Under the pieces are notes generated by a model that saw only the letters and a program-made list of their open reading frames with translations, was not told where the DNA came from and made no database searches. Both the position numbers and the translations under genes were made by a program. 64,000 nt of DNA from a virus (lineage: Duplodnaviria; Caudoviricetes), in IMG/VR virus record IMGVR_UViG_3300033073_001761, positions 4,547-68,546 of that record. One strand, written 5' to 3'. Within the stretch, counting starts at the first letter, position 1. Every line of letters starts with the position of its first letter. Below, one piece after another: positions 1 to 64,000 of the stretch.

Positions 1-2
1 CC

Positions 3-134
3 GATTTCAATGGACCGGCTTACATCTGGTATCAGATCGCGGTAGACACGCATCGTAGACGCTCGGATCACGCCGTCTCGAATAATCTCCGCGGCGGCAG
101 TGCTGTCGGTGTAGTGGTAGAGATTACGTGCCAC
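3..134 (-). CDS. Partial ORF truncated by the window edge; N-terminus resembles ADP-ribosyltransferase-like (HYD-type) domains
   Basis: Read manually: GTG start with AGGAG upstream, MARNLYHYTDSTAAAEIIRDGVIRAST...; LYHYT...I...G.I..S is a typical ART-fold start; only 44 codons visible. Confidence 0.4.
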   Translation of the reverse strand, partial: MARNLYHYTDSTAAAEIIRDGVIRASTMRVYRDLIPDVSRSIEI

Positions 135-375
135 TGTCGTTGCTCCTAGTATTCGGCTGTTTGAACCACCACGGGTATAGTTCATCGACACGCTTGATTA
201 TTCTGGCCTTGGCCTTGCGGCACAAAACGTGTTGATCGGTATAAATCTTGCGCATCCAATCGTATACCCATATTGTCTTATCCCTCTGAACCCAACACGC
301 CACCGAAGATATCCCCCTACCCTCGAATGCTTTCACCCTAGCCGTTACGTACATCGCATTATTCGGGTCAAACAT
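124..375 (-). CDS. Hypothetical phage protein
   Basis: ATG with purine-rich RBS (GAAGAAAGG); co-oriented with neighbours. Confidence 0.6.
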   Translation of the reverse strand: MFDPNNAMYVTARVKAFEGRGISSVACWVQRDKTIWVYDWMRKIYTDQHVLCRKAKARIIKRVDELYPWWFKQPNTRSNDSGT

Positions 376-436
376 ACTTTACCTTTCTTCCCTTATTGCT
401 CTTTCTCGCCAATAGCTGCGCAGACATTCGTCACCC

Positions 437-1075
437 TTACCTCTCGTAATCAGCTTTGCCGCAAGCCATGCACCAGTCGTCACCGCCGAGCGTCCACTGG
501 TTGCAGTGCCGACACCGGACGTGATCGCTTGACGGCCGCACGCTATTCGGGTCGTTCTTCAGCCGGTCCACGAACCGCCGCATCCCGCCCAGCGTTTGGT
601 ACTCAGTCCGCTCGTGTCGGCCGTATCCGTAGCTAACGGTCCGCGGCTCGTATCGCTTTACCACTTCGGCAACATCATCGTTGGCGGATTCGCCAGGACG
701 CGTACAGTGTACCCAGAAATCCAGGGTGCCGGCAAGGTCAGTCAGGCGGCACTTGTATTCGCCGCTTTTCGTCTCGCCAACCCAGATTGCGTAGTAGGTC
801 TTGCCCTTGTACTTGACCTTGGCGACGATCTTAGTGTCGTCGGGTAGTTGCTTCTTAACGTCGCCGCTTTCGCTTTTGTCAGTAGCAGCTGGAGCAGCGG
901 TCAGATCCGAGATCAACTTTTCGGCCTCGGCAACCTTTCCCGTTCCTACCCACCAAGCACGCCGGGCAGGATCCCAGTGTCCGCCGAGAGCCTTGATATC
1001 GTCTTTAATCGCGTAGGTGTCGCCGATAAAGTAGACGCGGCGAGCTTCCTTTTCCAGGGTGATAGACTTTGACAC
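437..1075 (-). CDS. Hypothetical phage protein with C-terminal Zn-ribbon (CxxC...CxxC)
   Basis: TAAGGAG RBS; YAIKDDIKALGGHWDPARRAWW phage-type N-terminus; CRHC/CMAC at the C-terminus. Confidence 0.75.
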   Translation of the reverse strand: MSKSITLEKEARRVYFIGDTYAIKDDIKALGGHWDPARRAWWVGTGKVAEAEKLISDLTAAPAATDKSESGDVKKQLPDDTKIVAKVKYKGKTYYAIWVGETKSGEYKCRLTDLAGTLDFWVHCTRPGESANDDVAEVVKRYEPRTVSYGYGRHERTEYQTLGGMRRFVDRLKNDPNSVRPSSDHVRCRHCNQWTLGGDDWCMACGKADYER

Positions 1076-1093
1076 TTGATCGCTCCTTAAAAC

Positions 1094-1156
1094 TTAGCCT
1101 GCCATCTTCAGTACCAGCTAGGCTAACAGCTGGTAGACGCCCGAAGGCGTTTCGGC
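1094..1156 (-). ncRNA. Type II hammerhead ribozyme 1
   Basis: Minus strand: GCC-GAAA-CGCC(TTCG)GGCG-TC-[TACCAGC/GCTGGTA stem I]-CTGAAGA-T-GGC; stem I loop TTAGCCT pairs with downstream AGGCTAA (pseudoknot); predicted cleavage after GUC between 1136 and 1135. Confidence 0.88.
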
Positions 1157-1282
1157 TTATCGACCGCGACTCGTGTAATAATCGAAACCAAGCATCCCGA
1201 TTGCGAGAAACAAGCTGATGTACCCAAACACCACATTTCCGACCGCAAACTGAACAGCCGCGTTGATTAGATTGATAGTCAT
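1157..1282 (-). CDS. 41-aa hydrophobic peptide, not in the ORF track
   Basis: AGGAG RBS; MTINLINAAVQFAVGNVVFGYISLFLAIGMLGFDYYTSRGR; stop abuts ribozyme 1. Confidence 0.6.
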   Translation of the reverse strand: MTINLINAAVQFAVGNVVFGYISLFLAIGMLGFDYYTSRGR

Positions 1283-1336
1283 TTTCGATTCTCCTAACTT
1301 CCCTGCTTCACCATTCCAAACCACTACCGCAACTGC

Positions 1337-1438
1337 TTACCGACGATCGTTCCGGGCATCGGCCATGGCCTGCGACCAGACCACTTCGCTAGCGACAACC
1401 GAGGCAACCAATGCGGCGATTACGATGATCACTTCCAC
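1337..1438 (-). CDS. 33-aa single-TM peptide (true start of track ORF 1337..1600)
   Basis: GGAG 8 nt before GTG; MEVIIVIAALVASVVASEVVWSQAMADARNDRR. Confidence 0.55.
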   Translation of the reverse strand: MEVIIVIAALVASVVASEVVWSQAMADARNDRR

Positions 1439-1453
1439 TTCGAGCACTCCATT

Positions 1454-1515
1454 TAGCCTGCCATCATCAGTGGTCACCCGGCTACTGGTGACCAGACGCC
1501 CGAGGGCGTTTCGGC
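1454..1515 (-). ncRNA. Type II hammerhead ribozyme 2
   Basis: Minus strand: GCC-GAAA-CGCC(CTCG)GGCG-TC-[TGGTCACC/GGTGACCA stem I]-CTGATGA-T-GGC; loop TAGCC pairs with downstream GGCTA; predicted cleavage between 1495 and 1494. Confidence 0.9.
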
Positions 1516-1517
1516 GA

Positions 1518-1604
1518 TTAGTGATACCGTCGCTCGCGTCGCAGATCCAAGTGGCACCGATAGGCCACGAAGCTGATAAACGCGAGTAGTACGATTTCAT
1601 CCAT
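1518..1604 (-). CDS. 28-aa hydrophobic/basic peptide, not in the ORF track
   Basis: TAAGGAG RBS; MDEIVLLAFISFVAYRCHLDLRRERRYH; stop abuts ribozyme 2. Confidence 0.55.
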   Translation of the reverse strand: MDEIVLLAFISFVAYRCHLDLRRERRYH

Positions 1605-1670
1605 GACTAGCTCCTTAGATCGCTACTACCATCACCCCTACATTACAGTATTCGCTCGCCGTATCTAATA

Positions 1671-1686
1671 TTGGCGAATCCGCCAA
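1671..1686. promoter_or_regulatory. Palindromic operator candidate TTGGCG-N4-CGCCAA, copy 1
   Basis: Perfect 6-bp inverted repeat in an AT-rich intergenic region; second copy at 2196-2211. Confidence 0.55.
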
Positions 1687-1768
1687 ATTATTTCAAAATA
1701 ATTTTCTTGGCGATATTACATTCCCAAGCAGGTCGGGCCAATCCCTCGCTCGATAGACTCGGGAGTAG

Positions 1769-2125
1769 TCAGCGGGCGACCGCAGCGGCCGCAGCGGCCT
1801 CGATTGCGTCGCCCTCGCCGGCGAAAATGCGGTAGAGTGTGCGGGTCAGTAGCTTCCAGGGCCACGAAGTTTCCGGGAGCGACGACTTAGCGGTCCGCCA
1901 AACTTCGCCATTCGGTCCGAGCTTGCCGACGTAAGTGTAATCGCTGGTGTTATCGGGACCGGTGAGGATCGAAACAAAGTAGCATTCGTCGTACTTGTCC
2001 GTCTTAGCTTTGTGGCAGACCTTGAACGTGTAATGTGACGTGCCGAGGTGCTGGTATTGTTCCGGAACCTCGATCGTGAAAATCGCCTTGCCCGCGGTGA
2101 TGAATTCTTTGGTAACCATAATCAC
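1769..2125 (-). CDS. Conserved-type hypothetical phage protein
   Basis: AAAGGG RBS; FITAGKAIFTI...HYTFKV...LTGPDN pattern typical of phage early proteins. Confidence 0.7.
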   Translation of the reverse strand: MIMVTKEFITAGKAIFTIEVPEQYQHLGTSHYTFKVCHKAKTDKYDECYFVSILTGPDNTSDYTYVGKLGPNGEVWRTAKSSLPETSWPWKLLTRTLYRIFAGEGDAIEAAAAAAVAR

Positions 2126-2195
2126 TGCCCTTTCTCAATCATCTGCAATCCTGCGATCATCCGCACATAACGGTATTCGCGACCGGAAAGCAATA

Positions 2196-2211
2196 TTGGC
2201 GGATTCGCCAA
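2196..2211. promoter_or_regulatory. Palindromic operator candidate TTGGCG-N4-CGCCAA, copy 2
   Basis: Exact reverse complement of 1671-1686; same AATA 5' flank and shared GTATTCGC upstream. Confidence 0.55.
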
Positions 2212-2213
2212 CA

Positions 2214-2516
2214 TTATTCTGGAGAATATTCCTCGCATCGGTAGCAGTGCTCACGCGGGCGGACGCGGCGACCAAGTAGCTCGCATTCGCGGGGCCAGGA
2301 GAAAGGACAGGAGCCGGGTTTGCGCGAACCTGGATCGACTAGCTGGCCGAGGTGCTCGCAAGGTCGAGCGGCAAAATTGTTGGCGCGGATAGGGCCGACG
2401 GGAGAAGATACCTGGGGAGCTTCGGCCCTAATCTGGGGAGCTTCGGCCCTTGCCTGGGGAGCTTCGGCCCTTGCAGCCGATTTTGCGAGATCAAACAACC
2501 GAGAACTCGAGCGCAT
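2214..2516 (-). CDS. Small Cys-rich hypothetical protein with RAEAPQ repeats
   Basis: C-terminal part of track ORF 2214..2591: PCEHLG...C...C...CYRCEEY; start inferred at ATG 2516. Confidence 0.45.
   Translation of the reverse strand: MRSSSRLFDLAKSAARAEAPQARAEAPQIRAEAPQVSSPVGPIRANNFAARPCEHLGQLVDPGSRKPGSCPFSWPRECELLGRRVRPREHCYRCEEYSPE
2412..2474. repeat. 21-bp tandem repeat x3 (CTGGGGAGCTTCGGCCCTTGC)
   Basis: Three direct copies with no spacers. Confidence 0.95.
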
Positions 2517-3546
2517 CGATCGCACCTGGCTTGTCAATAGTGATGCAACCACCAGCCGGGCCAACAAACGGCAACGCCGCGGCGATCGCAATATCGGGGA
2601 AATCTGGATCGTTACCCGGCCAGTCGTCCTCGAATCTTACGCGACCTACCCACTGCTGCGATCCAAACTCGGGGTCGGCACGATCGTAAAACGCGTCGGC
2701 CCAAAGCACCCGAACGTCGGCAGCTGGAGCCAGCCCATTGACGTGACCTAAAGAATTGCTCACCGAATCCAACCAGACCAGCGGCACGTGCGGCCGGCAC
2801 CAATTGACGCCACCGAGGTCACCGCCGTGATTCGGGCCTCGGCAGGTATTTGCGATCGTCGCTGGCGAGTAAACGTAGCGGTCGATTTCGACGCCGAAAC
2901 TCACGGACGGCTGCACGGCGCTCGAGTAATTCCCCTGGAGCAGCGTATCACAATCGCGGCTATCGTTCGGCAGGTTGCTAATCGTCGCGGTCACCGAGTT
3001 TGGCTTGCTCGCGGCCAGCCAGCGGGCGAGGGTGACAAAGGGCACCAAGGCAAACGTTTCGCCGGCGAGCCCAGATTCCGACCGTGGGCAGATTTTGCGT
3101 CGGCCGGCTTCTAGGGATTCGTCGACGACAGATACTAGGTTGTCGGCCTCGGCATCATAGACGTAATTCGCGTAGTAGTCGTCGTCCCAGAGTGAAAGGT
3201 CAATGCCGTGCTGCAGTGTTTCGCCGACCGTAGCCTTGCGAATTCTTAGCACCGCGCCAATTCCGTCACCTTCATCGTCACGTGTGTAATACCAAGCGTC
3301 CGTGTCTTGCGACAAGTATTTGACAACGAGCCCCGGAACGCCGGCATAACCGGGATTCGGGATTCTCGCACCAGTCGGCACGCCGTTTAGATTCGCGTAC
3401 GTTTCGATGAGTATTAGCGTGTTTTGCCAGGGAGCTTCGCCGAGGATTCGCTGCGTGCGATCGACGGAAGCCGTGCGGGCCGACAGGTAGGGTCGCTTGA
3501 TTCGGCAGTCGGTCTGACAGCAGCAAAAGCCAAGTCCGAAGCCCAT
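2491..3546 (-). CDS. Hypothetical, probable virion/tail protein
   Basis: 351 aa; N-terminal CCC motif; end of the late minus-strand operon. Confidence 0.6.
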   Translation of the reverse strand: MGFGLGFCCCQTDCRIKRPYLSARTASVDRTQRILGEAPWQNTLILIETYANLNGVPTGARIPNPGYAGVPGLVVKYLSQDTDAWYYTRDDEGDGIGAVLRIRKATVGETLQHGIDLSLWDDDYYANYVYDAEADNLVSVVDESLEAGRRKICPRSESGLAGETFALVPFVTLARWLAASKPNSVTATISNLPNDSRDCDTLLQGNYSSAVQPSVSFGVEIDRYVYSPATIANTCRGPNHGGDLGGVNWCRPHVPLVWLDSVSNSLGHVNGLAPAADVRVLWADAFYDRADPEFGSQQWVGRVRFEDDWPGNDPDFPDIAIAAALPFVGPAGGCITIDKPGAIDALEFSVV

Positions 3547-63842: not shown

Positions 63843-63915
63843 GACGCCGTAGCCAAGTGGCTAAGGCAACCGGCCTGGAAATCGGTGAACGCGGGTTCGA
63901 GTCCCGCCGGCGTCT
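63843..63915 (+). tRNA. Atypical tRNA, anticodon GGA (Ser-decoding), short variable loop, 8-nt anticodon loop
   Basis: GACGCCG/CGGCGTC acceptor; GCC/GGC D-stem with TGG; ACCGG/TCGGT anticodon stem; GCGGG-TTCGAGT-CCCGC T-arm; discriminator T; no encoded CCA. Confidence 0.75.
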
Positions 63916-63925
63916 AAATCACGAT

Positions 63926-64000
63926 GACCGGGGAACCCAGCTGGTGCTGGGGAGCGGTTGCTACCCGTTTGAAAAGGAGTTCGACTCTCCCCCCGGTCTC
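63926..64000 (+). tRNA. Non-canonical 8/4-fold tRNA, anticodon GCT, 3' end at the window edge
   Basis: 8-bp acceptor GACCGGGG/CCCCGGTC; 6-bp D-stem CCCAGC/GCTGGG with 4-nt loop; AGCGG/CCGTT stem with loop TTGCTAC; 4-bp T-stem GGAG/CTCC with loop TTCGACT. Confidence 0.78.

Follow-up and report, generated by a model that had tools for sequence, protein, structure and literature searches.

The window analysed here is a stretch of 64,000 nucleotides taken from an IMG/VR virus record of 68,546 bases that is 93% complete. On its minus strand, an open reading frame (ORF) of 28 amino acids is followed by a ribozyme (HHR2), ORFs of 33 and 41 amino acids, a second ribozyme (HHR1) and an ORF of 212 amino acids (Table 1). 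The two hammerheads have the same orientation and enclose the two small ORFs of 33 and 41 amino acids. An earlier, sequence-only reading of this DNA had described the same order, and it was reproduced here feature by feature. The stop codons of the 28-aa and 41-aa ORFs end 4 nt and 2 nt, respectively, before the CGAAAC of the adjoining ribozyme, and the TAA of the 41-aa ORF overlaps the first model position of HHR1. From the ribozyme core to the next start codon there are 25 nt at HHR2 and 29 nt at HHR1, an interval that also holds the Shine-Dalgarno (SD) site, so that each ribozyme does end just before the next ribosome binding site (RBS), as had been proposed.

The block is preceded by the last large structural-looking gene (2491..3546) and by a gene of 116/118 amino acids. 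Past it, genes on the same strand encode proteins of 83, 173 and 113 amino acids, a class 3 lipase and a PAS protein, and lead on to a thymidylate synthase and a tyrosine integrase (PF00589); the integrase lies about 4.5 kb further along, on the same strand as the ribozyme block. Because this run of genes leads to a tyrosine integrase, the phage is taken to be temperate. The block lies near the integrase end of the genome and reads as an operon of accessory or early type. The sequence-only reading had taken it for an early polycistron, but with late structural genes on one side, the integrase end on the other and a promoter-like site of its own, it may just as well be a moron or lysogenic-conversion operon. 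That site is the only sigma-70-like site in positions 1-3000, a weak distinction in that shuffled sequence yields as many, and its place upstream of the first ORF suggests that the transcript may start there. No intrinsic terminator was predicted on the minus strand between the ORFs, save a weak one within the 41-aa ORF.

Table 1. Features of the hammerhead block in window coordinates
Feature	Position	Strand	Details
Promoter-like site	1667..1696	-	TTGAAA, 18 nt, AATATT; within an AT-rich gap that precedes the 28-aa ORF
28-aa ORF	1518..1604	-	AAGGAG 6 nt before ATG; TAA stop; hydrophobic N-terminal stretch, basic tail
HHR2	1452..1516	-	41.4 bits; stem II 1515-1513/1462-1460; GAA 1512-1510; stem III 1509-1496; C17 1495; stem I hairpin 1494-1471; CUGAUGA 1470-1464; extra U 1463; pseudoknot tail 1459-1452
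33-aa ORF	1337..1438	-	GGAG 8 nt before GTG; very hydrophobic helix, charged tail
41-aa ORF	1157..1282	-	AGGAG 8 nt before ATG; transmembrane-like helix
HHR1	1093..1157	-	38.8 bits; stem II 1156-1154/1103-1101; GAA 1153-1151; stem III (UUCG loop) 1150-1137; C17 1136; stem I hairpin 1135-1112; CUGAAGA 1111-1105; extra U 1104; tail 1100-1093
212-aa ORF	437..1075	-	AAGGAG 7 nt before GTG; downstream of HHR1

Both ribozymes are matched over their full length by the Rfam type II hammerhead model (Hammerhead_II, RF02276; model positions 1-66 of 66). They were scored with cmscan at the gathering threshold of 37 bits, and the scores listed in Table 1 correspond to E-values of 5e-5 for HHR2 and 2.3e-4 for HHR1, or of 1.3e-8 and 5.9e-8 with the genome alone as search space. 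The claim that two type II hammerheads with the full catalytic core lie here was thus upheld by an Infernal search with both scores above the cut-off. Judged by their sequences, both are genuine type II hammerheads. Within the window and the remaining 4.5 kb of the record, Rfam returned no further hammerhead or other ribozyme at E≤1, which leaves HHR1 and HHR2 as the sole type II hammerheads of the 68.5-kb phage at that threshold. The idea that the phage carries additional degenerate hammerheads or other ribozymes was rejected on the same result.

The structure lines of the cmscan alignments give a three-helix topology in which stems I and III are capped by loops and stem II is open, with the 5' and 3' ends of the motif in stem II. 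As read from the sequence, stem II in both copies has 3 bp (GCC/GGC) and is followed by G12A13A14. Stem III has 5 bp in each, with A15.1-U16.1 as its closing pair, and its loop is CUCG in one copy and UUCG in the other. C17 comes next, then a stem I hairpin of 8 or 9 bp. The CUGANGA core strand, which differs between the copies at one base (Table 1), is accompanied in both by GAAA and the GUC triplet. Pair 10.1-11.1, expected to abut the core, is G-C in both copies, but both have one extra U between A9 and G10.1. Predicted cleavage falls between C1495 and U1494 in HHR2 and between C1136 and U1135 in HHR1, with 359 nt between the two cuts; U1494 and U1135 are the 5'-OH positions that the sequence-only reading had named.

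Stem I is where the two copies diverge. One copy has the strands UGGUCACC/GGUGACCA and the other UACCAGCUG/UAGCUGGUA; every pair differs between HHR1 and HHR2 and the pairing is intact in each, a covariation that can be seen directly in the sequence and that had been pointed out beforehand. The other structural feature claimed earlier, a conserved pseudoknot between loop I and the 3' tail, was likewise found in both copies. Loop I, UAGCC(U), pairs with (A)GGCUA of the tail, which reads AGGCUAA in both, and the pseudoknot has 5 bp with a duplex energy of -8.2 kcal/mol in HHR2 and 6-7 bp with -9.6 kcal/mol in HHR1. When set against the published type II hammerheads (RF02276; PMC3088659), the pair has the same core, the same open stem II and capped stems I and III, and the same loop I-tail pseudoknot. 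Nothing essential differs, and the extra U between A9 and G10.1 is a sub-variant that occurs in 40 of the 122 ribozymes of the family survey described below.

The minimum-energy fold of HHR2 is the canonical three-way junction, at -25.8 kcal/mol. For HHR1 it is an inactive alternative, at -25.6 kcal/mol versus -23.5 kcal/mol for the canonical fold with the pseudoknot uncounted; the canonical fold is thus 2.1 kcal/mol worse before the pseudoknot duplex of about -9.6 kcal/mol enters. In the alternative fold of HHR1 (window 1093-1160, minus strand), the stem III loop region CUUCGG pairs with CUGAAG of the core and masks the catalytic strand. HHR2 has no such masking alternative, and that of HHR1 may be a matter of chance.

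For comparison, type II hammerheads with the same stem III were collected from IMG/VR contigs, giving 116 loci and 122 distinct sequences, the window's two included. Of the 122, 100 have a stop codon that ends 0-4 nt ahead of CGAAAC (at 1 nt in 37 and at 2 nt in 35), as against some 4-5 stops per position at offsets beyond about 10 nt. The ORFs that end at these ribozymes have a median maximal length of 87 amino acids. On the other side, the next start codon lies a median of 27.5 nt past the CUGANGA core, and an SD-like motif is present in 93 of 116. The loop I-tail pairing has a run of at least 4 bp in 104 of the 122 ribozymes, and at least 14 loci have two to four copies, often 300-700 nt apart. 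The succession of stop codon, ribozyme and RBS is therefore a property of the whole family, of which the window's pair is typical. The layout that the sequence-only reading had pointed out is thus not special to the locus, the same arrangement being common across the surveyed family. Filling the gap between a stop codon and the next ribosome site has been known as the usual layout of phage hammerheads since 2011; the locus is a clean example of it and not a new system, and it adds no new principle.

Whether the small ORFs are genes was judged by codon usage and by hydropathy. Codon-usage log-odds trained on 28 long ORFs of the phage itself gave 0.234 bits per codon for the 33-aa ORF and 0.231 for the 41-aa ORF, both above the mean of chunks of true genes (0.211) and the 99th percentile of out-of-frame small ORFs (0.169); the 28-aa ORF, at 0.064, is ambiguous. 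Hydropathy over 15 residues peaks at 1.8, 2.93 and 2.35 in the 28-, 33- and 41-aa ORFs, respectively. Of 352 small ORFs in six frames that served as background, 4.5% reach 1.8, 1.7% reach 2.0 and none reaches 2.5. Three consecutive hydrophobic ORFs on one strand, each with an SD site, are unlikely to be due to chance. The three peptides are probably products of real genes, because they have SD sites, coding-like codons in two cases and a hydrophobicity that is rare among small ORFs. Further support for the 28-aa and the 41-aa ORF comes from their position, since in the family it is the rule for a real gene to stop right in front of the ribozyme. For all three, Pfam and PHROGs hold no matching family at E≤1 and exact-cluster look-ups return no cluster mates; the 41-aa peptide forms a singleton cluster and has nothing similar in the protein atlas.

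That standard annotation would miss the peptides had been predicted, and this proved correct in part. The IMG gene calls lack the 28- and 33-aa ORFs; the 41-aa ORF was called. In place of the first two, IMG has an 87-aa frame (1600..1337, minus strand) that runs straight through HHR2, and the 33-aa ORF appears there only as the C-terminal part of that frame. Were the 87-aa frame the real gene, the ribozyme-like stretch would be coding sequence, or the RNA would be cut within a coding region. The frame is open and has been called as a gene in the IMG-derived collection, and the codon score of its N-terminal 54 codons (0.093 per codon) is no worse than that of the 28-aa frame. An open frame through a ribozyme of this kind is, however, expected by chance: at least one sense frame is open through 117 of the 122 family ribozymes, and 40 can be read within an upstream-starting ORF of at least 60 amino acids. 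The 28-aa frame, in contrast, has its stop codon 4 nt before HHR2, within the range seen in 82% of the family, and encodes a hydrophobic helix with a basic tail that is rare among small ORFs, while the GGAG and GTG of the 33-aa ORF lie at a distance past the core that is near the family median. A cut inside the coding region would, moreover, yield non-stop messages. An 87-aa gene containing HHR2 is accordingly considered unlikely, and the 28- and 33-aa ORFs probably represent the correct reading of this region. The 40 family ribozymes just mentioned could be over-called in the same way. With the rule of stop codon, ribozyme and RBS as a guide, micro-ORFs can be located and gene calls that cross a ribozyme put right.

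Three consecutive ORFs with a hydrophobic helix and a charged tail, set among ribozymes, might suggest that the ribozymes are coupled to membrane peptides, for example in a module for toxicity, exclusion or the timing of lysis whose expression is set or gated by cleavage, somewhat as in the 3' processing of hok mRNA. Small membrane ORFs also adjoin type II hammerheads at five other loci of the survey (L023, L025, L031, L033 and L112). These, though, amount to only about 5 of 105 upstream ORFs in the relatives, most of the rest of which encode soluble proteins of 60-140 amino acids. This count led us to reject the idea that type II hammerheads are regularly partnered by membrane peptides, and the pairing of ribozyme and membrane peptide, which the sequence-only reading had singled out, lost its special standing. 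The peptides are better seen as the cargo found at this locus by happenstance than as a defining partner of the ribozymes. Nor do they match any family that would point to such a module. No close relative of the locus was found by a search of GenBank phage DNA, by a strict ribozyme pattern in IMG/VR or with the 212-aa protein alone as query.

The peptides of type I toxin-antitoxin systems (hok, tisB, fst) are about 30-40 amino acids long, combine one hydrophobic helix with a charged tail and come from mobile elements. The peptides of the window resemble them only in size, helix, tail and mobile-element setting, with no sequence similarity. For the antisense RNA of such a system, a crude consensus scan found no plus-strand promoter-like site in positions 1-3000, and there is no match to an sRNA of Rfam. 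The hydrophobic ORFs of a type I module are therefore present and its antisense RNA was not found, and the locus was not classed as such a module. Taken together, these points make functional coupling of the ribozymes to the membrane peptides improbable. Yet more specific, and quite improbable, is the proposal that the pair releases a hairpin-capped, two-gene message of 359 nt, possibly circularised by a host ligase, together with a one-gene message of about 166 nt, and that the three micro-peptides act together, for instance in superinfection exclusion or as a toxin-like module, with cleavage setting their amounts.

The 212-aa protein encoded downstream of HHR1 has a weakly DUF5710-like N-terminus and a C-terminal CxxC...CxxC motif, whose cysteine pairs look like a zinc ribbon. 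It belongs to an uncharacterised phage family known from at least 30 loci, in which H33-W34-D35 and W41-W42 are invariant (alignment A1). The best genome match to the family is an assembly of Schlesneria (Planctomycetota), at only 33% identity. Relatives were found at 30 other phage or metagenome loci, none of which (0 of 30) has a type II hammerhead beside the gene and none of which has comparable membrane micro-ORFs upstream of it. A tie of the ribozymes or the peptides to the 212-aa gene was rejected on these grounds, and the ribozymes appear dispensable for the gene, since its relatives are mostly without hammerheads.

Three of the 30 loci have type I hammerheads at other junctions (L120:3525-3573, L124:3391-3449 and L135:528-581). 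The L124 copy is matched by Rfam at 34.2 bits (L124:3389-3451) and begins 5 nt past the stop codon of the 212-aa homologue, so that related phages place a hammerhead of different topology at a different junction of the same gene. Those of L120 and L135 have intact cores and were found by a simple pattern finder; Rfam overlooked the L120 copy at E≤0.1 and the L135 copy at the gathering threshold. The L120 hammerhead starts right past a TAA stop codon. The same locus has, directly upstream of its 212-aa homologue, which is the position of HHR1 in the window, an 11-bp GC-rich hairpin with a 20-nt loop (L120:3919-3960). Given the type I copies at other junctions and this plain hairpin, hammerheads of either topology and plain hairpins appear to be interchangeable at junctions in these phages.

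Such turnover, with hammerheads that come and go and shift in type and position among relatives of the 212-aa gene, and with a plain hairpin in the place of HHR1 in one of them, is also what inactive or selfish leftovers without a role for the phage would produce. Against this, all core positions are intact in both copies of the window, stem I is fully covarying and the pseudoknot is kept in both, and the precision with which ribozymes across the family are fitted in between stop codon and RBS speaks for a layout under selection. That the ribozymes are leftovers is therefore very improbable.

We consider it likely that HHR1 and HHR2 are two ordinary type II hammerheads, probably active as predicted from their structure, that lie between the cistrons of an accessory operon of a temperate phage. 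A transcript that starts near position 1660, as placed from the promoter-like site, would contain the 28-aa ORF, HHR2, the 33- and 41-aa ORFs, HHR1 and the 212-aa ORF in turn, and would cut itself after C1495 and after C1136. Three messages would result, of about 166 nt, of 359 nt and the remainder. The ends of these messages follow from the type II topology, in which the cut falls between stem III and stem I. Each upstream product would have its stop codon and some 22 nt more, ending in the GC-rich hairpin of stem III with a 2',3'-cyclic phosphate; each downstream product would begin with the stem I hairpin, in which its 5'-OH end is base-paired, with the SD site and start codon within 25-29 nt of the core. 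About 22 nt past the stop codon should, by our own estimate of the ribosome footprint, suffice for a terminating ribosome. From what is generally known of bacterial mRNA decay, ends of this kind, hairpins on the one side and 5'-OH groups on the other, would be expected to protect against exonucleases and against RNases that depend on the 5' end. With hairpin-capped ends and an RBS context independent of the neighbouring genes, dosage and stability could differ from gene to gene. The anatomy of the locus fits the cutting of a polycistronic RNA into pieces; co-transcription, cleavage in vivo and stabilisation are inferred.

Comparable ideas have a history. Perreault and colleagues (2011; PMC3088659) showed that clustered hammerheads of prophages cleave polycistronic transcripts of about 2 kb in vitro, and for one set also in vivo, and they proposed processing into gene-length mRNAs. 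A review of 2019 (PMC6765202) repeats the idea that the pieces may differ in stability or translation efficiency. The separately stabilised mRNAs that the sequence-only reading had put forward thus restate a published hypothesis, and the best-supported reading here is the published one, self-cleavage of a polycistron into gene-length messages, perhaps with differing stability or translation. The clusters in Figure 3 of the 2011 paper, such as the ardA triple of Agrobacterium tumefaciens, share with the window copies in the same orientation, a short gene block, a temperate phage and an integrase a few kb off, and the integrase-near accessory context is that described there for bacterial hammerheads (PMC3088659). 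In contrast to those clusters, the genes flanked here are unusually small (28, 33 and 41 amino acids) and hydrophobic, with a spacing of 359 nt. The same hypothesis of processing would apply to the window's pair of predicted ribozymes.

Two other systems are instructive as analogies. In the early region of phage T7, RNase III of the host cuts double-stranded sites between cistrons, and the upstream mRNA ends in a protective 3' hairpin. These sites may be regarded as a functional analogue, in that cistrons become separate messages; T7, however, relies on a host enzyme, whereas the RNA of the window is predicted to cut itself and its downstream piece to gain a 5'-OH and a 5' hairpin. Insulators of the RiboJ type have a hammerhead just upstream of the RBS, which strips off the RNA that precedes it so that the message starts with a hairpin. 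RiboJ was engineered from a satellite-RNA hammerhead of different topology, and its likeness to the pair described here would be one of proposed working only, not of family membership.

A different fate for the released RNA, in which the 359-nt piece (1494..1136) is circularised or the outer pieces are spliced together, would suit the 5'-OH and 2',3'-cyclic phosphate ends, which are substrates for RtcB or for ligation by the hammerhead, and the identical stem II strands and tails of the two copies, which could form a chimeric hammerhead across the junction; it was raised by Perreault et al. 2011 (PMC3088659), but they looked for such products and detected none, stem II has only 3 bp with no flanking complementarity to join the ends, and the 359-nt fragment looks coding in content and is no more structured than its shuffles (z = -0.33), so that this fate is most unlikely. 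A structured non-coding RNA between the ribozymes was rejected on the same z-score.

The value of the locus under the reading of ordinary inter-cistronic hammerheads is mainly practical. Since the part that hammerheads play in bacteria and phages has still to be proven (PMC6765202), each clean and compact locus is a usable test case. With its pair of ribozymes, three tiny ORFs and predicted products that can be told apart by size, this one lends itself to simple experiments on cleavage and half-life. It also holds a lesson for annotation, given the two ORFs that were missed here and the frame that was called in their stead.

Several further elements were noted in the neighbourhood of the block. 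The promoter-like site overlaps the palindrome TTGGCGAATCCGCCAA (1671-1686). This 16-nt palindrome, TTGGCGRATYCGCCAA, occurs exactly at two sites and with one mismatch at a third (1671-1686, 2196-2211 and 681-696), where 0.06 occurrences are expected by chance. The two exact copies closely precede the 28-aa ORF and the 116/118-aa gene, and each is followed by TATT so that an AATATT hexamer resembling a -10 element is formed, and the palindrome may be an operator or promoter element shared by two successive transcription units. Directly past the stop codon of the 351-aa gene there are three head-to-tail repeats of 21 nt (GGGCCGAAGCTCCCCAG plus 4 variable nt; window 2408-2470, minus strand), which could be an iteron-like or regulator-binding array. 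Towards its right end the record has a tRNA (57 bits) and a second, tRNA-like match (38.6 bits with the tRNA-Sec model, below the cut-off), at window 63843-63915 and 63926-63998. At the left end, a tRNA-like fragment (L003:1107-1181; 23.8 bits, below the cut-off, and not called as a tRNA by ARAGORN) adjoins the integrase and is perhaps part of the attachment site.
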